Assembly (NCBI GenBank): GCA_045129715.1
Contig: JBGVKA010000068.1
Span: 1 to 35,633, forward strand
Reading direction: 5' to 3'
DNA length: 35,633 bases
From: Eubacteriales bacterium
GTDB lineage: Bacteria; Bacillota; Clostridia; Oscillospirales; CAG-272
Part shown: positions 7,633 to 25,613 of the stretch, one piece after another
Layout of the letters: the number at the start of each line of letters is the position of its first letter
How positions within the stretch are numbered: position 1 is the first letter of the stretch
Position numbers and translations under genes: made by a program
Notes under the pieces: generated by a model
What the model was told of the DNA's origin: nothing
The model's input: the letters and a program-made list of their open reading frames with translations, nothing else
Database searches by the model: none

Positions 7633-9576
7633 TTACATTACTATTTCATAAAGCTCAAGAAGCTCTTCTTCTATTGCACTCTTGCGCTCCTCTATCTCTG
7701 CTGCGCGCACGTAGTTCGTTGCCGCCTCGCCGAAGAGCTCCTCCTCAAGAGCCTCGAGCTCAGCTTCAAGCTTTTCGATCTTTGCCTTCGCCTCGCGCTG
7801 ACGCTTTTCCTCGCTTCTGCGCTCTGCTGCCTCGCGCTTTCTCTGCTCGTATTCCTGCTTTGACGAGGTTTCGGGCTTCGAGGCGAGAGCCTCTGCCGCT
7901 TTTTGTAGCTTTGCTTCCTTTGCCGCGGTACGAATGCGCATATATTCGGTGTACGCGTCGTCGTAATCCTCAAGAGAGTAATCTACGAGTCCGCGCTCGT
8001 TTTCTGTGTCAAGCTCGATTATGCGCGTGGCTATTCTGTTTATAAAATATCTGTCGTGCGATACCGCTATGATGGTTCCGTCAAAGGCTAAAAGCGCGTT
8101 TTCAAGAGCCTCTGCGGAGCCTATGTCAAGGTGGTTCGTGGGCTCGTCCATAATAAGAAGATTTACCTTCTTAAGCATAAGCTTTGCAAGAGTGAGTCTT
8201 GCACGCTCGCCGCCCGAAAGCACGCTGATAGGCTTTATTATATCGTCTGCTCCGAAAAGGAAGAGCGCGAGGACCGAGCGAAGCTCACCGTCCTTCTTGT
8301 CGGGATATTCGTCGTGAAGCTCGTCAAAAACGGTCTTGTTTTGCGAAAGTCCGCGGTTTTCCTGATCGTAGTAGCCGATCTTTATGTTATACCCAAGCGT
8401 TATTTTTCCGCGAGTGGGAGTAAGCATAGAGTTGATAAGCTTCATAAGAGTCGATTTACCGCAACCGTTTTTACCGAGAAACAGCACGCGCTCGTATCTT
8501 CTTATAAGAAAAGAAATATCGTTGATGAGGGGCGAGCCCGTGTAGGAAAACGAGAGGTCCTTGACGTCGATAACGTCACCTGCGCTCTCCTCCTCGGCGT
8601 TGAACGAAAGGCGTATATCCTTCGGGGGAGGCGGTGCGAGCTCTATCTTTTCCATTCTTGCGAGCTGCTTTTCCTTCGATCTTATCGTCACGAAATTGTG
8701 CTCTCGGTTGCATCTGCGCTGGAATTCTATATTTGCCTTGATCTTGGCAATTTCCTTTTGCTGCTCCTTGTATCTCTTTTCAAGAGAAGCCGCCTCAGCC
8801 TCCTGCATATCCTTCGTTGCGGTGTAATTTCCGTTGTAAAGCTTTGCGCCCGCGTACTGTATATGAAGAGTTTTATTGGTGGTCCGGTCAAGGAAATATC
8901 TGTCGTGCGAGATTATTATAACGGTCTTCTTGTACGTTGAGATAAAGCTCTCAAGCCAAGCGAGAGAGTCAATATCAAGATGGTTCGTGGGCTCGTCGAG
9001 CATAAGAACGTCGGGCTCGGTCGCAAGAAGTCTTGCCAAGGAAAGACGGGTGTACTGTCCGCCCGAGAGGGTGGATATGTTCTGCATAAGCAGAGCCTCG
9101 TCAAAGCCGAGTCTTAATAGCATGCTCTTACATCTTGAGCGGAATTCAAGACCGCCGTCAAGCGCGAATTTTCTGTTGAGCTCCGTGAGCTCCTCGGTCT
9201 TCTTTACCGCCTCGTCGTGCATACCGTGAGAGGAAAGAATGGATATCTCACTCTCAAGTGCCGCGATTCTTGCCTCTGCCGCCACAAGCGCGGGGAACGC
9301 GGAATACATATAATCTATGCATCTCGTTGCACCGGGCAGAGCGGTAAGGTCGGGGTTCTGCTCAAGACAGCCGACGGTGTATCCCTTTTGCAGATACACG
9401 GCTCCCGAGTCTGCCGAATACACGCCGGTTATTACTTTAAAAAGCGAGGTCTTGCCCGCACCGTTCACTCCGATAACGCCAACTCTGTCACCGTCGTTTA
9501 CCGAGAACGAAACGTTTTTTAAAACGGTTTCCATACCGAAGGATAGGGAAACGTCGGATACCGATAATGCAATCAT
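7633..9576 (-). CDS. ABC-F family ATPase (two ABC domains, inter-domain linker, C-terminal coiled coil; Uup/YdiF-like)
   Basis: Two Walker A motifs (GVNGAGKTS, GKNGCGKST), two LSGG signatures (LSGGQ, LSGGE), no transmembrane domain and a lysine/glutamate-rich C-terminal coiled coil. Confidence 0.95.
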   Translation of the reverse strand: MIALSVSDVSLSFGMETVLKNVSFSVNDGDRVGVIGVNGAGKTSLFKVITGVYSADSGAVYLQKGYTVGCLEQNPDLTALPGATRCIDYMYSAFPALVAAEARIAALESEISILSSHGMHDEAVKKTEELTELNRKFALDGGLEFRSRCKSMLLRLGFDEALLMQNISTLSGGQYTRLSLARLLATEPDVLMLDEPTNHLDIDSLAWLESFISTYKKTVIIISHDRYFLDRTTNKTLHIQYAGAKLYNGNYTATKDMQEAEAASLEKRYKEQQKEIAKIKANIEFQRRCNREHNFVTIRSKEKQLARMEKIELAPPPPKDIRLSFNAEEESAGDVIDVKDLSFSYTGSPLINDISFLIRRYERVLFLGKNGCGKSTLMKLINSMLTPTRGKITLGYNIKIGYYDQENRGLSQNKTVFDELHDEYPDKKDGELRSVLALFLFGADDIIKPISVLSGGERARLTLAKLMLKKVNLLIMDEPTNHLDIGSAEALENALLAFDGTIIAVSHDRYFINRIATRIIELDTENERGLVDYSLEDYDDAYTEYMRIRTAAKEAKLQKAAEALASKPETSSKQEYEQRKREAAERRSEEKRQREAKAKIEKLEAELEALEEELFGEAATNYVRAAEIEERKSAIEEELLELYEIVM

Positions 9577-11559: not shown

Positions 11560-12252
11560 TTATTTTATAAAAAGTCTGCGTCCGACTCGAACGAGCGTAG
11601 AGCCCTCTTCGATAGCAACTCTGTAGCTGTCGCTCATTCCCATCGAAAGAGTTGGCTCGTTACCGAAGCCGTATTGCGAATTTAATTTATCAAAAAGATT
11701 TTTCGTAAGACGAAAATATTTTCTGAGATCCTCGGGATCCGTAACTGCGGGTCCCATAGTCATAAGTCCCGAAACCGCGATTCCATCGAACTTGGATACA
11801 CTTTCGAAAAAGCGCTCCGCATCCATGGGTAAGACTCCGCTTTTTTGCGGCTCCTCGGCACTGTTTATCTCGATCAAAACGGGAATCGCTTTGCCGAGCT
11901 TTTTTGCCTGTTTATCGATCTCCTTCGCGAGTGAGAGGGAGTCGAGCGAATGTATAAGCGTTGCCTTGTCGCAAACGAGCTTAGCCTTGTTCGATTGAAG
12001 CGTGCCTATCTGATGAAGCTCGGGAAAAAGCGCGGAATCGGTGAGAAGCTCTCCTCGTCTTTTGAGCTCACCGGGACGGTTTTCGCCTATAGCCGAAGCT
12101 CCGGCTCTTGCGAGAGCCAAAAGCTCCTCGTCTGTGCCGCTCTTAGTAACGCATACGAGCTTGGGCACGTTCGTTCCAACGCGCTCTGCAATGCTCGAAA
12201 GCTCGTCGTAAAGCTCTTTGAAATTTCTCTCTATATAGCCGTAATCAGTCAT
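11560..12252 (-). CDS. yggS: YggS/YlmE-family PLP-binding homeostasis protein (230 aa)
   Basis: The LVCVTKSG lysine motif and overall family resemblance. I place the start at the ATG at 12252 (MTDYGYIERN...). The 38 extra N-terminal codons in the ORF track (to 12366) look non-protein-like and overlap the hairpin array. Confidence 0.9.
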   Translation of the reverse strand: MTDYGYIERNFKELYDELSSIAERVGTNVPKLVCVTKSGTDEELLALARAGASAIGENRPGELKRRGELLTDSALFPELHQIGTLQSNKAKLVCDKATLIHSLDSLSLAKEIDKQAKKLGKAIPVLIEINSAEEPQKSGVLPMDAERFFESVSKFDGIAVSGLMTMGPAVTDPEDLRKYFRLTKNLFDKLNSQYGFGNEPTLSMGMSDSYRVAIEEGSTLVRVGRRLFIK

Positions 12253-12315
12253 TGAAAATACCACTCGGATCACAAAATATATTTCTTTAACTACCATTAA
12301 AACTATGATCGGAGA

Positions 12316-12471
12316 TCGAAATCTCTGATTTCGACGGCAAATCCATGATTTGCGAACAAATTTCAAACAGAAATTTGCCGATCAACGTTTCAATGATTTG
12401 GTCGCTAAAAGCTTTAGGGCTTTTAGCACGACTGAAAAAATTCAGTCGCGAAAAGGCGAGGTGCCTTTTCG
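12316..12471 (-). promoter_or_regulatory. Array of seven contiguous distinct hairpins (probable 5' leader RNA of the yggS operon)
   Basis: H1 12316-12334, H2 12337-12353, H3 12357-12377, H4 12380-12403 (one T-G pair), H5 12404-12427, H6 12429-12448, H7 12449-12471. Stems are 6-9 bp, loops 3-12 nt and spacers 0-3 nt. See the first finding for sequences. Confidence 0.6.
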
Positions 12472-12485
12472 ACGTACCATAAATC

Positions 12486-12515
12486 ATTATAACACATGCG
12501 GAGCCGTGATTTCAA
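12486..12515 (-). promoter_or_regulatory. SigA-type promoter reading into the hairpin array and yggS
   Basis: Minus strand reads TTGAAA-18 nt-TGtTATAAT. The predicted TSS is near 12479, about 7 nt before hairpin H7. Confidence 0.5.
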
Positions 12516-12551
12516 GTATTAAATTAAATATTTGATAAAATAATAAAATCC

Positions 12552-12580
12552 TATTGATTTTACACGAAAAATTTGATATA
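12552..12580 (+). promoter_or_regulatory. SigA-type promoter for mrnC-hisS
   Basis: TTGATT-17 nt-TGaTATACT, about 45 nt upstream of the mrnC ATG. Confidence 0.55.
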
Positions 12581-12623
12581 CTGTTAGGGTGAAATTAATT
12601 CGACTTTTCCGAGAGGTAGAGAG

Positions 12624-13037
12624 ATGCATGAAAAAATAAGAGGCGCGGCGTTGCCGTCGGTGGGAGCCTTGTCGTACGTCGGTGATGCGCGGCATTCGCT
12701 TTACGTCAGAACCATGCTCGTCAAGCGCGGTATTTCGAAATCCGGCGAGCTTAACGAGACGGCTCTTCGTTACGTGACCGCCGAGGCGCAGGCGGAGGCG
12801 TTTGCCAAAATAGAAGATCTGCTCCTCGAGGACGAAAGGGACGTGTTTAAAAGAGCGTATAATTCGACTCATCTTAACAAGCCGAAGCGTGCTTCGGGTA
12901 AGGATTACAGAACCGCAACGGGATTTGAGGCTGTGATCGGAATGCTGTCGTTTATAGGCGACGAAGAAAGAATAGATTATCTTCTCGGTGTTGCTCACGG
13001 AGAAAACGGAGGAATAGAAAATGATACAGAAAATTAA
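12624..13037 (+). CDS. mrnC: Mini-ribonuclease III (23S rRNA maturation)
   Basis: 137 aa with LSYVGDARHSLYVR (the RNase III-like signature of Mini-III) and FEAVIG. It overlaps hisS by 17 nt. Confidence 0.85.
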   Translation: MHEKIRGAALPSVGALSYVGDARHSLYVRTMLVKRGISKSGELNETALRYVTAEAQAEAFAKIEDLLLEDERDVFKRAYNSTHLNKPKRASGKDYRTATGFEAVIGMLSFIGDEERIDYLLGVAHGENGGIENDTEN

Positions 13038-16884: not shown

Positions 16885-19302
16885 ATGGTGAATTTGAGCA
16901 TAGAATATACAAATGCAAAGAGAGCACTTTTCGATAAAGTGTTCGAAAAGAGACTTAATAAAGAACAGTGCCGCGCGGTCTTTACCACTAAGGGACCGCT
17001 TTTGGTGCTTGCAGGTGCGGGAAGCGGAAAGACCACCGTGCTCGTAAACAGAATAGCGTATATTATTAAATACGGAAACGCCTATTTTTCCGAAGACGTT
17101 CCCGATACCGTAAGTGAGGAGACCGTTGAGGCACTTCGCGATGCACAAAGGCTTTCGGCAGAGGAGATCGAGGAGATACTGCCCGAATTTATAACCGAGC
17201 CCTGTCCTCCGTGGTCGGTGCTTGCCATCACCTTTACTAACAAGGCGGCAAACGAGATGAAGGAGAGACTTGCCTCGATATTCAAGCACGACGATCTTGC
17301 CGACTCTATCTGGGCGGGCACCTTCCATTCCGTATGCCTTCGCATACTCCGTAAATACGGTGAGCGTCTTGGATACCGTCAGGGCTTTTCCATATACGAT
17401 ACGGACGATTCGAAGAGAATGATCCTCCAGTGCATGAAGGATCTGGATATCGACGATAAAAAGCTTTCTCCGAAGGTGGTTCAGGGTGCCATAAGTCGCG
17501 CAAAGGACAGATTAACGCCCGCTTCGGAGTTTGAGCTTACCCACGATCCGCGAAGCCGCGACGTAAAGAGAATATACGAGCTTTATACCGAGCGTATGAT
17601 GTATAACAACGCCGTCGATTTTGACGATATAATAATGCAGACGGTCGCGCTTTTGAACAACTATCCCGACGTGCGCGAATATTATCAGAACAAGTTCAAA
17701 TACATACTCGTCGACGAGTATCAGGATACGAACTACGCTCAGTTCGTTTTGACCGAGATACTTGCCGCAAAGTATAACAATATTATGGTCGTCGGTGACG
17801 ACGATCAGAGCATATACCGCTTCCGCGGCGCAACGATAGAAAATATTCTTAACTTTGATAAGACCTACCCAAAGGCAACGGTGGTGAAGCTTGAGCAGAA
17901 TTACCGTTCTACCGAAACCATACTTGAGGCGGCAAACTCCATTATTCATAACAATGAAAAAAGACACAGCAAGAGTCTTTGGAGCGAAAAGGGGCGCGGT
18001 GATAAGATCACCGTCAGAGAGGCGGCGGATCAGAACGAGGAGGGAAGATACATTATCGACCGAATCAATCAGGGCGTCAGAAATCAGGGTAAAAAATATT
18101 CCGATTACGCAATACTTTATCGCATAAACGAGCTCGCGCGCTCGCTTGAGACGACCTTTGCCAAAAGCGGAGTTCCTTACAGGATATTAGGAGGCACGCG
18201 CTTCTACGATCGCAAGGAGATAAAGGATATGACCGCGTATCTTTCGGTCATCAACACCTCAAGCGATTCCCTGAGGCTTAAGCGTATCATAAACGAGCCT
18301 AAGCGAAAGATAGGTGCCACAACGGTCAGTGCGATCGAGGAGATAGCCTTCAGAGAGGGACTCAGCATGTACGAGGTCATGCGAAGATCCTCGGAATACG
18401 TTGCGCTTTCAAAGAGTGCGGATAAGCTTATAGCCTTCACCGAGATGATGGACAAGATCGCGAGCGAGGGCGGCCGTCCCTCAGAGATCATCGAAAAGGT
18501 CTTTGAGCGAAGCGGCTATGCCGATATGCTTATCGCGGAGGGCTTTGAGGGAGAAGGAAAGAGAGATAACGTAAACGAGCTTATAGCGGGTGCCCTCGAA
18601 TACGAGAAGAGATGTGCGGAGAGTGATACCGAGCCTACTCTTTCGGGATATCTTGAGGATATCGCGCTCGTCAGTGACGTTGATAAATACGACGAAAATG
18701 CCGATGCGGTCGTTATGATGACTGTGCACTCGGCAAAGGGACTTGAATTCCCGATAGTATTCCTCGCAGGTATGGAGGACGGAATATTCCCCTCCGAGCA
18801 GAATATGAGGGACGAGGAGGAGCTCAGTGAGGAGCGCAGACTTGCTTACGTTGCGATAACGCGTGCCAAGGACAAGCTCTTTATAACCTACGCTAAAAAC
18901 AGAATGATGTACGGCAAGACCGCATACAATATGCTTTCCTCGTTCGTAAGGCGAGAGATTCCAACCTCGCTTATTGAGAACGATATGCCTCGCCGCGAGC
19001 CTCCGAGGGCGGCGGCATCCCGGTATAGCTCGGGCGGTTACGCTAACCGCAGCTATCAAAGAAGCAATTCCGAGATCAACAGAGTTCCCGATTTTTACCG
19101 TCAGACTCAAAAGCGTGCGAGTGCATCCTCGTTTGGAATTGAACGCTTGGAGCCCGGATGTGCGGTAACGCACTCGATGTTCGGTGACGGTGTGATAGTC
19201 AGTGCGAAGGATATGGGCGGAGACATACTTTACGAGGTGGATTTCGCATCCTGCGGTAAAAAGAAGCTTATGGCTACCTTTGCCAAGCTTATGAAAAAAT
19301 AA
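16885..19302 (+). CDS. pcrA: ATP-dependent DNA helicase PcrA (UvrD/Rep superfamily 1)
   Basis: AGAGSGKTT Walker A, VDEYQDTN, the helicase motifs through the VMMTVHSAKGLEF and YVAITRAK motifs, and a C-terminal Tudor-like tail. GAGGAG RBS. Confidence 0.95.
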   Translation: MVNLSIEYTNAKRALFDKVFEKRLNKEQCRAVFTTKGPLLVLAGAGSGKTTVLVNRIAYIIKYGNAYFSEDVPDTVSEETVEALRDAQRLSAEEIEEILPEFITEPCPPWSVLAITFTNKAANEMKERLASIFKHDDLADSIWAGTFHSVCLRILRKYGERLGYRQGFSIYDTDDSKRMILQCMKDLDIDDKKLSPKVVQGAISRAKDRLTPASEFELTHDPRSRDVKRIYELYTERMMYNNAVDFDDIIMQTVALLNNYPDVREYYQNKFKYILVDEYQDTNYAQFVLTEILAAKYNNIMVVGDDDQSIYRFRGATIENILNFDKTYPKATVVKLEQNYRSTETILEAANSIIHNNEKRHSKSLWSEKGRGDKITVREAADQNEEGRYIIDRINQGVRNQGKKYSDYAILYRINELARSLETTFAKSGVPYRILGGTRFYDRKEIKDMTAYLSVINTSSDSLRLKRIINEPKRKIGATTVSAIEEIAFREGLSMYEVMRRSSEYVALSKSADKLIAFTEMMDKIASEGGRPSEIIEKVFERSGYADMLIAEGFEGEGKRDNVNELIAGALEYEKRCAESDTEPTLSGYLEDIALVSDVDKYDENADAVVMMTVHSAKGLEFPIVFLAGMEDGIFPSEQNMRDEEELSEERRLAYVAITRAKDKLFITYAKNRMMYGKTAYNMLSSFVRREIPTSLIENDMPRREPPRAAASRYSSGGYANRSYQRSNSEINRVPDFYRQTQKRASASSFGIERLEPGCAVTHSMFGDGVIVSAKDMGGDILYEVDFASCGKKKLMATFAKLMKK

Positions 19303-19326: not shown

Positions 19327-20019
19327 ATGATAAAGGCTTGTCTTTTTGACCTTGACGGCACGCTTTTGAATACTTTAGCATCGATAAGATATTACGTAAA
19401 CAGAAATATCTCAGGATACGGTATAAGAGCCGTAAGCGAAGCGGAGACGAAGATCTTCGTCGGAAACGGTGCAAGAGTGCTTATTGAAAATATTTTTAAG
19501 GATAGGGGTCTTGACCTTAGAGAGAGTGATACCCGTGAGCTTTTTGAACGCATCTTAAGGACGTACGTCAAGGAATACGACGACGAGCCTGCGTATTTGA
19601 CGGAGCCCTACGAGGGAATAGTTGACACCGTGAATAAATTGAAGAGCCTCGGCATATCCCTTGCGGTAATATCCAATAAGCCCGATCCGACGGTGAAAAG
19701 CCTTGTAAATAAGTTCTTCGGCAACGCATTCACGATAGTCGAGGGAGCGAGCGAGAGAATGCCGCTGAAGCCCTGTGCCGAGTGGCCTCTTGACATATGT
19801 GAAAGACTCGGTGTTTTGCCGAGTGAGGTAATGTACGTTGGCGATACCTCCACCGATATGCAGACTGCAAGGAATTTCGGTGCTAAGCTTTCCGTCGGAG
19901 TTTTGTGGGGCTTCCGCGACGAGGCGGAGCTCGTTAACAGCGGTGCCGACGTTATAGTATCGAGGGCGGAGGAGCTTTACGCCCTTGCCATAAAAGAAGC
20001 TCAAAAGGAGAATACGTGA
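19327..20019 (+). CDS. HAD-superfamily phosphatase (phosphoglycolate phosphatase-like)
   Basis: DLDGTL motif I, SNK motif II and GDTSTD motif IV, 230 aa. Confidence 0.8.
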   Translation: MIKACLFDLDGTLLNTLASIRYYVNRNISGYGIRAVSEAETKIFVGNGARVLIENIFKDRGLDLRESDTRELFERILRTYVKEYDDEPAYLTEPYEGIVDTVNKLKSLGISLAVISNKPDPTVKSLVNKFFGNAFTIVEGASERMPLKPCAEWPLDICERLGVLPSEVMYVGDTSTDMQTARNFGAKLSVGVLWGFRDEAELVNSGADVIVSRAEELYALAIKEAQKENT

Positions 20020-20540
20020 TGAAGAGAGTTACGGCACTCGTTGCGGCTATCGTTCTTGCCTTGGTAACACTCGTATCCTGCTCCGAGGATATCGAGTTTT
20101 CGGATATTGAATACAAGGAAAACGGAATATCGTTTTCCTTGCCGAACACCATGAAGCGCAGTGCGACCGAGGATTACGAGTTTTATTTCACGGGAATGAG
20201 TATGGACGTTATATTCAGTGCTATGAAGATAACGGACGAGTTTTTGAAAAAGGTCGAGCTTGAGCCGGGAATCAGCGCGAAGGAGTACGTTGATACCATC
20301 ATCGAAAGGCAGGGGCTTGATAAATCAAAGCTTTTCTATAAGCATTACGAGGACAAGGATCAGTATAATTTCAGATACAATTACGTTAGTGAATCGGGCT
20401 TTGAAATGTTCTATTACGTGACGGTGACGGGCCCTACCGATAACCTTTGGTATGTTGAAATGTGCTGTGAGGCAGAGGACTCCTCAAAATACCTTGATAT
20501 GTTCGATAGCTGGAGAAGAAGCATAGGAACGTATCAGTAA
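20016..20540 (+). CDS. Lipoprotein of unknown function
   Basis: Signal peptide with the lipobox LVSC (MMKRVTALVAAIVLALVTLVSC). The start is GTG at 20016 or ATG at 20019, overlapping the upstream stop. Confidence 0.7.
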   Translation: MMKRVTALVAAIVLALVTLVSCSEDIEFSDIEYKENGISFSLPNTMKRSATEDYEFYFTGMSMDVIFSAMKITDEFLKKVELEPGISAKEYVDTIIERQGLDKSKLFYKHYEDKDQYNFRYNYVSESGFEMFYYVTVTGPTDNLWYVEMCCEAEDSSKYLDMFDSWRRSIGTYQ

Positions 20541-20572
20541 TGTAAACAAAGATTAGAAAAAAGACTGATTTA

Positions 20573-20662
20573 AAATAAAAAACAGCGGACAGATCGTCTG
20601 CAATAAGCTTTATTCCTTGCATAGAATAAAGACGGTTGCAACGGTTGTCCGCTGTTTTTATT
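20573..20662. terminator. Bidirectional terminator between convergent genes
   Basis: An 11-bp outer stem AACAGCGGACA/TGTCCGCTGTT (20581-20591 with 20647-20657) encloses an 8-bp CTTTATTC/GAATAAAG hairpin. An A-run lies upstream and a T-run downstream. Confidence 0.7.
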
Positions 20663-20676
20663 CGTGAAATTTGAAG

Positions 20677-21435
20677 TTAAACGTAAACCTCAAGCTCTAT
20701 GTTGAGCTTTCCCTTTTTAGAGGTGCCCGTGACACCGAGATAGATAAATCTTCCGTAACCGCGAACGCTTACGACGTCGTTTGGCTTCGGTGCGTAGGAG
20801 TTGTTCTCAACGAGCCTGCCCGAAACGAAAACGAGTCTCTTTTTGAAAAGTGAAAGCGATTCCTCGCGAGACATTGAATAGAGCTTGGATATAACGGCGT
20901 CAAGCCTTTCACCCGAAAGCTGAATTTTTCTATTCTCGGTCTTGAAAAGCTCACCGTCGGGAAGCGAGTCGGTTATACTCGTCTTGATGTCGGTCCTTTT
21001 TATCCTTTCAAGGCTCCTTGCGACGTAATCCGCCATATCGTCGGTGACGAAAATATATCCTGAGTTATCCTTTATTATTATATCACCGATAGCCTTCCTC
21101 TCTATTCCGAGGTTGAGTATCGCGCCCAAAAAATCACGGTGAGTGAGAGTGTCTGCAAACTTCGGTGCCTTAGGCTCCGCGAGAACTATTCTGATAGGGA
21201 AGTCCTCCTCGTAGCCGAGCTCCTCCGCGTCGCCGAAGCGAGCCATAACTCGCTCGCATCCCTGAGCACCGCCAAAGAGCGTGTATCTCGCGCGGCCGAA
21301 TTTAAGCTTAGCCTCGTTGAATATCGATTGCTCGTTGAGACCGAGAAAGTCGGAGAAAAGATAGTATCCTCCGCCGTCACTCTTCCGCGCGAGCTCGATA
21401 AAGCGTTTGTATAAAAGCTCTTCCTCGTTAGTCAT
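20677..21435 (-). CDS. ylmH: YlmH-family RNA-binding protein (C-terminal S4 domain)
   Basis: 252 aa with overall YlmH resemblance and a C-terminal S4-like segment (RLDAVISKLYSMSREESLSLFKKRLVFVSG). The start ATG overlaps the stop of the upstream PPIase by 1 nt. Confidence 0.8.
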   Translation of the reverse strand: MTNEEELLYKRFIELARKSDGGGYYLFSDFLGLNEQSIFNEAKLKFGRARYTLFGGAQGCERVMARFGDAEELGYEEDFPIRIVLAEPKAPKFADTLTHRDFLGAILNLGIERKAIGDIIIKDNSGYIFVTDDMADYVARSLERIKRTDIKTSITDSLPDGELFKTENRKIQLSGERLDAVISKLYSMSREESLSLFKKRLVFVSGRLVENNSYAPKPNDVVSVRGYGRFIYLGVTGTSKKGKLNIELEVYV

Positions 21436-23879: not shown

Positions 23880-25613
23880 ATGTCGTTTAAAAACAGAAAA
23901 AGAAATTACGCGCTTTACGAAACCACGAAATTCAGCGATTTCCGTGAGATGACGGAAAACGTGGCAAAGCGTTTTCCCGATAAAACCGCATTTCAGTATA
24001 AGCTCGATCCCAAGGATAAGGTGACTCAGCGCGTTACCTTTGCCGAGGCAAGAGAGTTTATAATGAACCTCGCAACCGAGCTTCACTCTATGAACGTAGA
24101 GGGCAAGAGAGTTGCCATTATCGGTCAGGCGTCGATCGAATGGTTCTTCTCCTATACCGCGCTTATGTCGGTCGGAGCTATAACCGTGCCGATCGATAAG
24201 GAGCTTCCCGTACCCGAAACCGCGTCCATCATCAATACCGCAGGCTGTGAGTACGTATTCTTTACCGATAAGCTCGCGGATAAGATCAACGAGCTCAAGG
24301 GCGTGGCAGAAACTCTCACGGGCTTCGTTTCCATGGGTGCCGATGACGTTGCGGGTGCAACCAAGCTTTCAAACCTCGTTGAGTTCGGAAGGGCTCGCGT
24401 TGCCGAGGGAGACACCTCCTATTTTGATTACAAGATAGACACCGAGAAGCTCGCCTCAATCGTGTTTACCTCGGGTACCACCGGCAAGGGCAAGGGCGTT
24501 ATGCTCTCTCTTAAGAATATCTGCTCGGATATGGAGCAGGGAATGTATAACTTCAACATTACCGAGAGAACCCTCTTTGCTCTTCCTCCCCACCACACCT
24601 TCGGCTCTACCGTTAATTTCGTAGGCCACTTTGCCCAGGGCTGTGAGATATACATTTCCTCGGGCCTTCGTTACATTCTCGACGAGCTTAAGTCCTTCAA
24701 GCCCACCCACCTTATTCTCGTTCCCCTCTTCGTGGAGACCTTCTACAAGAGAATTATGGCTACCGCGGAGAAGAGCGGAAAGCTCGAAACGCTGAAGAAG
24801 GGTATCAAGCTTTCAAATATGCTTCGTAAGATCGGTATAGATTTAAGAGGCAAGCTCTTCGGAGAGTCGGTGCTCTCAAGCTTTGGCGGTGAGCTTAAAA
24901 TGATAATCTGCGGCGGTGCGGCTCTTAACCAGACTATAATCGATTTCTTTGAGTCCATAGGCGTCGTGATCCTTAACGGCTACGGTATCACCGAGTGTGC
25001 ACCCCTTATCTCCTGCAACAGAAACGAGTGCAGAAAGCAGGGCTCCGTCGGTATGCCCATCATAGGCGGTGAGGTCAAGATCGATAATCCCAACGAGGCA
25101 GGCGAGGGCGAGATATGCTATCGCGGTCCCAACGTTATGCTCGGATATTTCGGTGACGAGGAGGCCACTCGCGCGGTCATCGACGAGGACGGCTTCTTCC
25201 ATACGGGAGACCTCGGCTACGTTAAGACGTTTGGAAAGGATCAGTGGATATACATTACGGGAAGAAGCAAGAACCTTATTATCTTCTCCAACGGTAAAAA
25301 CGTTTATCCCGAGGAGATCGAGACCGATATCCAGGGCGTTTACGGTGTAAACGAGGTAGTAGTTTACGCGGGCAAATCCAAGTCCGATCCTCAGAAGGAG
25401 GTAATCGTTGCCGAGATATTCCCCGATTTCGACGCTCTCAAGCTTCATAATATAGACGATGCGCAGAAGTATTTCGACGACGAAATAAAGAAGATCAACG
25501 CAAAGAACGTTTCCTATAAGACCGTAGGAAAGGTGAAGATAAGAACCGAGGAATTCCCCAAGAATACCTCAAGAAAGATCACTCGCTTCAAGCTCGATAA
25601 GTCGATAGATTAA
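23880..25613 (+). CDS. AMP-binding enzyme, long-chain fatty-acid--CoA ligase-like
   Basis: TSGTTGKGKGV AMP-binding signature, GYGITE and TGDLG motifs, 577 aa. AAAGGAG RBS. Confidence 0.9.
   Translation: MSFKNRKRNYALYETTKFSDFREMTENVAKRFPDKTAFQYKLDPKDKVTQRVTFAEAREFIMNLATELHSMNVEGKRVAIIGQASIEWFFSYTALMSVGAITVPIDKELPVPETASIINTAGCEYVFFTDKLADKINELKGVAETLTGFVSMGADDVAGATKLSNLVEFGRARVAEGDTSYFDYKIDTEKLASIVFTSGTTGKGKGVMLSLKNICSDMEQGMYNFNITERTLFALPPHHTFGSTVNFVGHFAQGCEIYISSGLRYILDELKSFKPTHLILVPLFVETFYKRIMATAEKSGKLETLKKGIKLSNMLRKIGIDLRGKLFGESVLSSFGGELKMIICGGAALNQTIIDFFESIGVVILNGYGITECAPLISCNRNECRKQGSVGMPIIGGEVKIDNPNEAGEGEICYRGPNVMLGYFGDEEATRAVIDEDGFFHTGDLGYVKTFGKDQWIYITGRSKNLIIFSNGKNVYPEEIETDIQGVYGVNEVVVYAGKSKSDPQKEVIVAEIFPDFDALKLHNIDDAQKYFDDEIKKINAKNVSYKTVGKVKIRTEEFPKNTSRKITRFKLDKSID

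Follow-up and report, generated by a model that had tools for sequence, protein, structure and literature searches.

The locus analyzed here is the region upstream of yggS on the minus strand of the window, i.e., of the whole 35.6-kb stretch of DNA under study. yggS opens the operon yggS-sepF-lspA-rluD, and an orthologous contig carries the Pfam families of the genes that follow (PF04472 SepF, PF01252 LspA, PF00849 RluD). Transcription is predicted to start at about 12478-12480, from a minus-strand promoter that the first-pass annotation had already read as TTGAAA-18-TGtTATAAT and that stands as proposed. Relatives share its -35 and -10 hexamers whether or not they carry the insertion described below, and it is the sole promoter that reads through the hairpin array. 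The divergent mrnC has its own promoter (12554-12582, plus strand) and is context, outside the module. The array had been placed between divergent promoters; the two promoters, however, stand back to back (12486-12515, minus strand; 12554-12582, plus strand), and the array lies between the yggS promoter and yggS. Because it lies downstream of the minus-strand promoter and not between the two, the suggested role as a DNA insulator between promoters does not apply. In the direction of yggS transcription, the features are as follows.

12554-13037, plus strand: divergent mrnC, Mini-RNase III of 137 aa (CDS 12624-13037; PF00636 on the identical protein)
12486-12515, minus strand: yggS operon promoter, -35 TTGAAA, 18-nt spacer and extended -10 TGtTATAAT (11 of 12 consensus matches, plus TG)
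12468-12493, minus strand: left copy of the duplicated target, GTTATAATGATTTATGGTACGTCGAA, comprising the working -10 box and the first transcribed bases
12291-12484, minus strand: the module as modelled, 194 nt, with two domains, six hairpins and two long-range helices
12476-12479, minus strand: 5' arm of helix P1, UGGU, pairing with 12399-12402 (ACCA) and closing domain I; present in the MFE fold
12449-12471, minus strand: hairpin H7, CGAAAAGGC-ACCUC-GCCUUUUCG, 9 bp
12429-12448, minus strand: hairpin H6, CGACUGAA-UUUU-UUCAGUCG, 8 bp
12404-12427, minus strand: hairpin H5, GCUAAAAGC-CCUAAA-GCUUUUAGC, 9 bp
12378-12397, minus strand: 5' arm of helix P5, AUCAUUGAAAC-GU-UGAUCGG, the region first read as a hairpin H4; an inverted copy of the -10/+1 segment
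12357-12377, minus strand: hairpin H3, CAAAUUUC-UGUUU-GAAAUUUG, 8 bp
12337-12353, minus strand: hairpin H2, GCAAAUC-AUG-GAUUUGC, 7 bp
12315-12335, minus strand: hairpin H1, GUCGAAAUC-AGA-GAUUUCGAU, 8 bp and an outer G.U
12293-12312, minus strand: 3' arm of P5, CCGAUCA-UA-GUUUUAAUGGU, closing domain II around H3, H2 and H1
12285-12303, minus strand: right-hand target duplicate, GUUUUAAUGGUAGUUAAAG, in which the second -10 has decayed; overlaps the 3' arm of P5
12253-12284, minus strand: ancestral short leader and ribosome-binding region, nearly invariant in empty and filled sites
11560-12252, minus strand: yggS, PLP-binding YggS family (from its translation; PF01168 on homologues)

The hairpin cluster is real, and chance is excluded as its source, as had been claimed from the sequence alone. 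All seven inverted repeats reported at first pass are present, and six of them (H1, H2, H3, H5, H6 and H7) are perfect, with stems of 7-9 bp within 156 bp; H1 can be extended to 12315-12335 by an outer G.U pair. The seventh, H4 (GATCAA/TTGGTC), contains one T.G pair on the plus strand, which on the yggS-sense strand is a C.A mismatch. The 35.6-kb window holds 43 perfect hairpins (stem of at least 7, loop of 3-8), six of which fall inside the 156 bp, against 0.16 expected per 156 bp from the rest of the window (Poisson probability of at least six, ~2e-8). No other 156-bp window of the 35.6 kb contains more than two, and 20,000 shuffles of the segment yielded at most three. With both strands compared, the array is the strongest-folding 160-nt stretch of the window (fold z-score -9.0 on the sense and -8.2 on the antisense strand), and the sense fold was the more stable one in seven of eight variants. 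The six stems are mutually unrelated, share no single consensus of the kind that defines REP/BIME or CRISPR repeats, and are accompanied only by short internal direct repeats of 8-19 nt, in agreement with the earlier statement that this is not a CRISPR, REP or tandem-repeat array. Neither strand has a terminator-like site at the array, so that the hairpins were rightly said not to be terminators. Other pairs of hairpins in the window (17704-17747, 25470-25531 and 8154-8203) are located inside long open reading frames, at no more than two per 156 bp, and were treated as chance occurrences and not as further arrays.

The array is a clean, lineage-restricted insertion of ~190 nt at +1 of the yggS operon. 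Empty sites in relatives read G(G/T)TATAATG(G/A)TAGTCGAAGAAATA, and in an alignment with the closest of them the flanks are conserved, interrupted by one gap of ~190 nt directly after TATAAT. The stretch TTATAATG(A/G)T..GTCGAA flanks the insert at either end, whereas an empty site has it a single time; it thus forms a target-site duplication, which at 10-17 nt is longer than typical duplications. The insert ends are direct copies of the -10/+1 segment, and an inverted copy of this segment is located mid-unit. The repeat period of 190 nt (12301-12490) is the unit period between two ATAATG-type anchors. The right target copy reads GTTATAATGGTAGTCGAAG in three carriers (L054, L065 and L056). A second promoter arising from the duplicated -10 was considered and rejected, as this copy has neither a -35 nor a TG and is decayed to TTTAAT in the window.

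Besides the window with its one copy, carriers of the module comprise six related metagenome lineages in different states: units doubled in tandem (periods of 190 and 191 nt) in L050 and L051, a unit that has lost 45 nt, and H7 and H6 with them, in L054 and L065, and strongly diverged versions in L052 and L056. The carrier contigs belong to ENA assemblies ERZ28633639, ERZ27297708, ERZ28633347, ERZ27297707, ERZ27297559 and ERZ27297711. Empty sites are present in L057, L061, L062, L063 and L001. No hairpin cluster occurs upstream of yggS in any of 45 species-level relatives, and close relatives of the carriers live without the module. Accordingly, the mrnC-yggS spacer measures 371 bp here versus ~160-185 bp in relatives that lack it. 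The module is known from a single locus, in a few uncultured Oscillospiraceae-like lineages of Clostridia from the ruminant gut. The exact YggS protein of the window has no database record, and contigs with the exact mrnC are uninformative on the array because they end ~100 nt before the gene.

The evidence supports the array as an RNA structure on the yggS-sense strand, and comparison of its variants suggests that the helices of the module are kept by compensatory changes. A covariance model (R1) scored 233 bits on the window copy and also scored every related copy. Changes on both sides of a pair were counted at 19 of 72 pairs, whereas shuffles gave 2.7 +/- 1.4 and slid controls 1-3, and 96.3% of cells were paired; RNAalifold re-predicted seven of eight helices with 17 compensatory pairs. 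As these counts derive from three independent sequence types and an alignment fitted to the structure, the covariation is suggestive and not statistically rigorous. Variable columns among the near-identical copies are located in loops or linkers or keep their pairing by G.U, except that pair 96/189 of P5 is A.A.

Eighteen pairs make up P5, a long-range helix whose arms are ~65 nt apart; 93% of its cells are paired, three pairs changed on both sides and seven on one side only. H5 is paired in 100% of cells over the variants and has three both-side changes, as well as two G.U pairs on the sense strand in L052. H1 has three pairs with both-side changes and a different loop in each lineage, and H3 shows both-side changes at five of eight pairs in L052 and L056. 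H7 is retained in L056 as GUGAAAAUG/CAUUUUCGC with a double change from G-C to U-A. H6 has two both-side changes in L056, is degraded in L052, and was lost along with H7 in L054 and L065, and the H2 stem is identical in L056 and gone in L052. P1 begins 1-2 nt from where the transcript is predicted to start and has both-side changes at two of its four pairs in relatives. This helix, which is proposed below to bury the 5' end, is the weakest of the module because RNAalifold did not predict it. The seventh hairpin of the first-pass annotation does not stand beside the other six: as a local hairpin H4 is 74% paired and lacks covariation, and its bases serve as arms of P1 and P5, which both covary. 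The 11-bp P5a of L052 contains four G.U pairs, each of which would turn into an A.C mismatch on the opposite strand or in duplex DNA. Assigning the strand from the overall wobble count was rejected, as the excess of ~16 G.U over 10 A.C in all helices is not significant; clear strand specificity is confined to the L052 P5 helix. The structure is not indispensable, because H6, H2 and P1 are broken in L052 and several pairs are broken in the second copy of L050. The idea of an operon leader thus holds in that the array is structured on the yggS-sense strand and read through by one promoter only; a dedicated, ancient leader it is not, with most orthologous regions lacking it. Likewise, the comparison of orthologous regions proposed at first pass revealed covarying helices where the array is present, together with absence from most relatives and a variable copy number.

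The structured RNA leader module is not previously described and belongs to no known RNA family. Rfam 15 gave no match over the whole window at gathering thresholds, and permissive E-values around the array returned only chance-level matches (E 2-10) with scores far under threshold, as expected from the first-pass view that it is no known riboswitch, T-box or ncRNA family. Many near-identical copies elsewhere in the genome had been named as evidence that would speak against a structured leader. With blastn-short and the covariance model, only yggS copies and palindromic echoes were found in the window and 65 related loci (431 kb), a scope that covers 35.6 kb of this genome plus the relatives' loci. 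BLAST detected no second copy in plasmids or phages, and neither did pattern scans of IMG/VR or a scan of JGI metagenomes for the exact core. With a loose core, JGI metagenomes yielded 105 matches over many sample types, as chance predicts, and none of the 80 put to the covariance model fitted it.

Known systems resemble the module in part. BOX elements of Streptococcus pneumoniae (boxA-boxB(n)-boxC), RUP and SPRITE are likewise short AT-rich Firmicute inserts in intergenic regions or 5' UTRs, with predicted stable stem-loops on transcription and a modular make-up whose copy number varies between strains, and BOX-type elements can in principle raise or lower the expression of downstream genes (PMC3049150). 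However, BOX has more than 100 dispersed copies per genome and iterates one internal module between flanks, whereas here one locus is known, without sequence similarity outside it in the window, relatives' loci, plasmids or phages, the six hairpins are unrelated, and what varies is the whole 190-nt unit (one or two) and a 45-nt deletion. Neisseria Correia MITEs, which create promoters or sit at them and are RNase III substrates, share an A/T-rich, -10-like target duplication, a highly base-paired RNA and a position at a promoter/leader junction (summarised in PMC3049150). Correia elements have 26-bp terminal inverted repeats, a TA duplication, one long hairpin and hundreds of copies. The module has the target-site duplication of a MITE but direct-repeat ends in place of terminal inverted repeats, two multi-hairpin domains, and an apparently single copy within the searched data. 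REP/BIME sequences are also clusters of short palindromes in transcribed extragenic DNA and able to stabilise mRNA. BIMEs, in contrast, are dispersed mosaics of one to three REP types in alternating orientation, usually 3' of genes, while the module combines six unrelated stems at the 5' end of a single locus. With riboswitches and other Rfam cis-regulatory leaders it has in common a 5' leader position, multi-helix junctions and covarying helices, but it has no Rfam match, no conserved unpaired nucleotides over diverged members and no expression platform (terminator or RBS sequestration), its stems are near-perfect, and it is confined to a handful of close lineages. The feature it does share with generic structured cis-acting RNAs is compensatory substitution, as seen in three sequence types and a model-fitted alignment. 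The functional analogy we favour is to the 5' stabilisers of Bacillus (aprE leader, ermC, hbs 5' UTR), in which a stable structure stands at or near the 5' end with neither a terminator nor RBS sequestration coupled to it (PMC3997798, PMC5737220). These are single hairpins or ribosome-stall sites of an ancestral leader, unlike the recent, duplicable, 190-nt module with six hairpins, which might stabilise its mRNA in a similar way.

We tentatively favour, with confidence a little short of even, the reading that the array is a young, structurally selected 5' leader module of ~190 nt at the start of the operon, which probably affects the fate of the mRNA. The module would have inserted exactly at the transcription start of yggS-sepF-lspA-rluD, duplicating the -10/+1 segment, and transcription would still proceed from the unchanged upstream promoter, so that the module makes up the first ~190 nt of a predicted ~227-nt leader. 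This leader RNA would fold unaided into domain I, with P1 around H7, H6 and H5, and domain II, with the 18-bp long-range P5 around H3, H2 and H1. Only the pairing is conserved, no terminator is present, and predicted RBS accessibility (-18 to +6) is unchanged (0.45-0.49 with one module, 0.48 without), which makes a generic structural 5' module more likely than a sensor. Burial of the 5' end in P1, followed by stable hairpins, could hinder 5'-end-dependent decay (RNase J, RNase Y entry), and P5 might also serve as a site for a double-strand RNase; either would set the mRNA level of the operon. In Bacillus, 5' stem-loops and structured 5' UTRs protect mRNAs from RNase J1 and RNase Y (PMC3997798; hbs case, PMC5737220). 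If this reading is true, a bacterial operon has been caught acquiring a large structured 5' leader, with empty, single, double, part-deleted and decaying states coexisting in available metagenomes. For RNA-motif hunters, the case would be a caution that clear covariation is possible in a young, dispensable and possibly laterally spreading element.

A possible, if less probable, explanation is that a selfish or neutral small insertion element (MITE/BOX-like) or a recombining cassette settled in the -10/+1 segment and is merely co-transcribed. Its perfect stems would then stem from palindrome correction at the DNA level (template switching) or from a need of the mobilising machinery, and not from a benefit to the host. 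Our favoured reading, too, allows that the origin of the element may be mobile or recombinational. The insert is flanked by a direct repeat of its target, occurrence among close relatives is patchy, and a single gain does not fit the yggS tree cleanly. Variation by tandem duplication and microhomology deletion and the decay of the L052 element and of the second L050 copy fit the selfish or neutral explanation as well. So does the identity of the elements, which between window and L054/L065 is 99%, loops included, although the 4-fold sites of yggS differ by 49-51%; the high-identity tract stops at the element borders, since the -35/-10 spacer just outside is diverged. Under the favoured reading as well, such identity despite half-saturated neutral sites suggests that the allele also spread laterally, into the same site. 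The identity of the window element to that of L052 is 77% at an equal neutral divergence of 49%, a contrast that function explains no better than does lateral spread of a selfish or neutral element. Template switching is a known process by which the two arms of a short inverted repeat become alike and perfect repeats are preserved (PMC5941160, PMC7202029). Structured co-transcribed repeats are common in Firmicutes (PMC3049150). On the other hand, no second copy was found in the window, the 431 kb of related loci, plasmids, phages, IMG/VR or JGI metagenomes, a protein search with the reading frame of the element retrieved only a variant from the same locus, and the insert ends in direct and not in inverted repeats. 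Moreover, short-range palindrome correction fails for P5, because its distant arms covary and tolerate G.U on one strand only, and G.U pairs inside the hairpins stay uncorrected.

Unlikely, in our view, is a combination of both, in which a non-coding mobile module of a new kind homes to the -10/+1 segment of one promoter, duplicates it and is at once selfish and domesticated. Its central inverted copy would let each half zip against a flanking -10/+1 copy. It would move laterally from species to species, entering the same site, mobilised by a trans-acting enzyme or purely by recombination via the conserved promoter and leader arms, and the RNA form would be under selection as a two-domain, six-hairpin 5' cap.

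That the array is a responsive regulatory leader, in which binding of a protein or small molecule or processing by RNase III or Mini-III tunes the operon, appears distinctly unlikely. RNA helices are conserved, P5 is an interrupted duplex of ~18 bp, and the middle segment can pair with the upstream or the downstream -10 copy, which would give alternative folds mainly in the two-copy allele; in the one-copy allele, however, the transcript is predicted to start after most of the upstream partner. RNase III targets transcribed Correia repeats, according to work cited in PMC3049150, and mrnC is the divergent neighbour. Yet the adjacency of mrnC and yggS is uninformative, because it is also found in ~35 species without the module, and nothing other than this adjacency was found in favour of a Mini-III substrate. 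Loops and junctions differ among the window type, L052 and L056, save for 14 nt, GATTTGCCGTCGAA, common to all three. The leader has neither a terminator nor an anti-terminator, predicted RBS accessibility is unaltered, and Rfam provides no match, all of which argues against a responsive device.

Action at the DNA level, with the palindromes serving as cruciforms or operators that affect the divergent promoters or local supercoiling, is very improbable. It could draw on the six perfect palindromes in an AT-rich divergent intergenic region and on the almost equal folding of both strands. However, the array follows the yggS promoter and does not separate the two promoters, stems with arms of 7-9 bp are short for cruciform extrusion, and the six palindromes, being unrelated, would each call for a dimeric regulator of its own. 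Pairing in L052 and L056 is kept by G.U, i.e., by mismatches in duplex DNA or in a cruciform of the other strand, and the long-range P5 covaries.

A small protein encoded by the 66-aa ORF at 12287-12487 (minus strand), which spans the insert exactly, is effectively refuted: a 66-codon frame is open through the AT-rich insert, survives the 45-nt deletion in L054 and L065, and is matched by database entry P0121, an ORF called over a variant of the same stretch, but its ATG is part of the -10 box, hence upstream of the predicted transcription start, and has no Shine-Dalgarno sequence, a stop ends the frame within 2-5 codons in L052 and L056, L050 has its second unit in a different frame, no genes were called there on any of the long contigs, and P0121 itself is a same-locus variant that fuses two different frames of the window sequence.

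The hairpin array upstream of yggS, the first gene of the yggS-sepF-lspA-rluD operon, is best filed as a small structured insertion that has turned into part of the 5' leader. The pattern is genuine, novel and instructive about evolution, with a narrow distribution and a putative function. The array lies in the 371-bp intergenic region between yggS and the divergent Mini-RNase III gene mrnC:

11560-12252, minus strand: yggS
12515-12486, minus strand: yggS promoter, TTGAAA-18-TGtTATAAT
12554-12582, plus strand: mrnC-side promoter, TTGATT-17-TATACT
12624-13037, plus strand: mrnC

The seven inverted repeats reported in the first-pass annotation (H1-H7, 12316-12471) were all found where stated (7/7), six of them with perfect stems of 7-9 bp as described. 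Across its 35.6 kb, the window has 43 perfect hairpins (stem of at least 7, loop of 3-8), six of which fall inside the 156-bp array where 0.16 are expected (Poisson P ~2e-8); elsewhere a 156-bp window contains two at most, and 20,000 shuffles of the array segment never gave more than three, so that the clustering is indeed far beyond chance. A sliding fold identified the array as the most structured stretch of the whole window on either strand, with z-scores of -9.0 for the yggS-sense (minus) strand and -8.2 for the other. The second most structured segment on both strands, 20521-20720, sits in the short spacer between the ORFs 20016-20540 (plus) and 20677-21435 (minus) and is probably a bidirectional terminator. 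The yggS promoter was found as annotated. However, the two promoters stand back to back, and the array is therefore downstream of the yggS promoter and not, as had been proposed, between the two. In agreement with the earlier reading, the array region contains no terminator-like site, and Rfam returned no match at curated or permissive thresholds.

The array is an insertion of ~190 nt. A YggS scan of species-representative genomes returned 45 loci (best 77% identical), all from ruminant or gut Clostridia MAGs (Eubacteriales/Oscillospiraceae), and in none of the 45 is yggS preceded by a hairpin cluster. Most have mrnC as the divergent neighbour, with a spacer of ~160-185 bp in the closest. Alignment to the closest loci leaves the flanks conserved on both sides of a single clean gap of ~190 nt, which starts directly after TATAAT. 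The empty site reads G(G/T)TATAATG(G/A)TAGTCGAAGAAATA, and in filled sites this segment flanks the insert on both sides. In the middle of the array, CGACCAAATCATTGAAAC repeats the -10/+1 segment GTTATAATGATTTATGGTACG in inverted orientation, and the array ends in a direct copy of that segment, decayed to GTTTTAATGGTAG. In six loci (L002, L012, L030, L035, L039, L041) mrnC starts ~0.9-1.8 kb upstream of yggS instead of ~180 bp, owing to another insertion, probably of a gene, in the same divergent spacer. The short ancestral leader AGAAATATATTTTGTGATCCGAGTGGTATTTTCA (window 12253-12284; equivalents in L001, L057, L062 and L063) is almost invariant across species with yggS only 73-80% identical, and may be a conserved translational or regulatory signal in its own right.

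Closer YggS homologues were taken from the protein collection and their contigs fetched.

Carrier and empty loci, with yggS nucleotide identity to the window
L050, L051: 90%; two tandem units with periods of 190 and 191 nt, the second slightly degraded
L052, L053: 82%; one unit, 77% identical to that of the window
L054, L065: 80%; one unit, lacking H7 and H6 through a 45-nt deletion
L055: 80%; one unit, truncated where the contig ends
L056: 76.5%; one unit, 79% identical, many indels
L057, L061, L062, L063/L064, L001: empty; 73-77% where computed (L057, L061, L001)

The deletion junction in L054 and L065 falls in AAAAG, common to H7 and H5. In a neighbour-joining tree of yggS, the window, L050, L052, L054 and L055 form one clade, and the carrier L056 stands among empty lineages; judged from this tree, the pattern would need two gains, or a single gain together with losses. 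The empty-site relative L061 has an atypical leader (L061:290-349, TATAATGAATACAGTATGTCGAAAAAATG) resembling the left junction of the insert, which may be the scar of a deletion between GTCGAA repeats or a pre-insertion intermediate. When the window is set against L050, its closest relative, yggS (11560-12252) stands out as the part of the locus that has diverged most, at 79-93% identity per 150-nt bin; mrnC, hisS, sepF and lspA are mostly 91-99% identical. This points to either unusually rapid evolution of yggS or a mosaic locus.

The minimum-energy fold of the yggS-sense strand is not seven separate beads on a string, as two long-range helices organize the hairpins:

12476-12479 pairing with 12399-12402, minus strand: P1, a short helix enclosing H7, H6 and H5
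12387-12397 and 12378-12384 pairing with 12306-12312 and 12293-12303, minus strand: P5, a long interrupted helix enclosing H3, H2 and H1

P5 comprises 18 pairs, two of which are G.U pairs on the yggS-sense strand only. The six perfect hairpins of the first-pass annotation thus stand, whereas H4 does not: its bases contribute an arm to each long-range helix, the 3' one in P1 and the 5' one in P5, and as a local hairpin it is 74% paired and without support in the model alignment.

This structure appears conserved among carriers. A covariance model built from the near-identical copies and the modelled structure recovered every copy, and otherwise only weak palindromic echoes on the opposite strand (window and 65 loci, 431 kb). 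In the model alignment of ten sense-strand matches, 96.3% of cells hold standard pairs. Both partners changed in 19 of the 72 pairs, compared with 2.7 +/- 1.4 in column shuffles and 1-3 with partners slid by 1-3 columns, counts that come from only three independent sequence types and an alignment fitted to the structure, and that are to be read with the covariation tool's own documentation that related sequences can beat shuffles. These changes are spread over all helices except the invariant H2. From the same alignment RNAalifold re-predicted H7, H6, H5, P5, H3, H2 and H1, but not P1, with 17 compensatory pairs. The arms of H3, for example, are CAAATTTC/GAAATTTG in the window, GCAATTTC/GAAATTGC in L052 and CAGTTTC/GAAACTG in L056; those of H7 are GAAAAGG/CCTTTTC in the window and GAAAATG/CATTTTC in L056, and the inner part of P5 reads GATCGG/CCGATC and AATCGA/TCGATT, respectively. 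Among near-identical copies, variation is confined to loops, linkers and columns that stay paired via G.U, the sole exception being an A.A at pair 96/189 in P5. Conservation is incomplete, with H6, H2 and P1 lost in L052 and several pairs broken in the second copy of L050. In the tandem loci, the promoter-distal copy (L050:2761-2961, L051:1468-1668) carries pair-breaking changes (H2 A.C, H1 A.G, P5 A.C) and one compensatory change in H1, from C-G to U-A.

The functional form is likely the sense-strand RNA. The yggS promoter is the only one to read through the array, and the sense fold beats the antisense fold in seven of eight distinct variants, by 1.4-8.7 kcal/mol. L052 retains an 11-bp P5a with four G.U pairs that would turn into A.C mismatches in DNA or on the opposite strand; across all helices the wobble count (~16 G.U versus 10 A.C) is not significant.

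A serious rival explanation is that the array is a selfish or neutral insertion, which would accord with the flanking direct repeat, the patchy distribution and the near-identity of elements in diverged hosts. The elements of the window and L054/L065 are identical at 136 of 138 positions, loops included, although 49-51% of yggS four-fold sites differ; upstream of the -10 box, overall identity of the intergenic DNA is 86%, and in the -35/-10 spacer, just outside the element, roughly half of the positions differ. Neutral divergence is equal in L052 (49%), where the element shares only 77% identity with that of the window. These sequence comparisons suggest either hugely unequal constraint between lineages or recent movement of the window/L054/L065 allele between lineages into the same site. 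The array may belong to an interspersed family, the copy-number searches having covered no complete carrier genome. No second copy was found in the window and related loci, plasmids, phages and IMG/VR, or with the exact core in JGI metagenomes; a loose-core scan of the latter gave 105 matches, and among the 80 listed none fit the model. The element's open frame had a single match in the protein collection, the entry P0121, which comes from the same locus, since its first residues are the translated yggS promoter sequence. Template switching, which corrects imperfect palindromes in DNA, can give short hairpins the look of compensatory change (PMC5941160, PMC7202029) but poorly explains the long-range P5 helix and the persisting G.U pairs.

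With regard to its role, the module is self-contained, since loops and junctions differ among the three sequence types, a terminator is absent and predicted accessibility of the RBS region (-18 to +6) is unchanged (0.45-0.49 in all one-copy variants versus 0.48 in the empty L001 leader). The loop comparison, terminator search and accessibility predictions revealed no ligand pocket and no expression platform. In the modelled fold, P1 would enclose the 5' end, and stable hairpins and an 18-bp duplex would follow as a block. Structures at the 5' end in Firmicutes shield mRNA from RNase J1 and RNase Y-entry-dependent decay (PMC3997798; PMC5737220), and RNase III can target long duplexes in transcribed repeats (summarised in PMC3049150). 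By analogy with these systems, we favour a generic effect on mRNA fate.

In the way it would work, the element is closest to co-transcribed structured insertions, such as BOX elements and Correia-type MITEs, and to 5' stabiliser structures. It does not, however, pass as a member of any family whose defining tests could be applied: its ends carry no terminal inverted repeats, its stems share no repeat consensus, no internal module is iterated, Rfam gives no match, and no unpaired nucleotides are conserved across its types. Unusual are the six unrelated hairpins in two junction domains, the central inverted copy of the element's own target, the tandem duplication of the whole unit and the cross-species covariation at a single locus.

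Contigs with an identical mrnC protein (L046:1-100, L047:1-100; ~window 12525-12623) all end ~0-100 nt upstream of mrnC, in the AT-rich inter-promoter stretch adjoining the array, which may be a spot where assemblies tend to break, possibly through variation in copy number. A 66-codon frame (12287-12487, minus strand) spans the insert exactly and is kept by the 45-nt deletion in L054/L065; the corresponding 66-aa ORF was rejected as an artefact. P0121, a 69-aa database 'protein' called over a frame-shifted variant of this frame, is very likely a spurious gene call.
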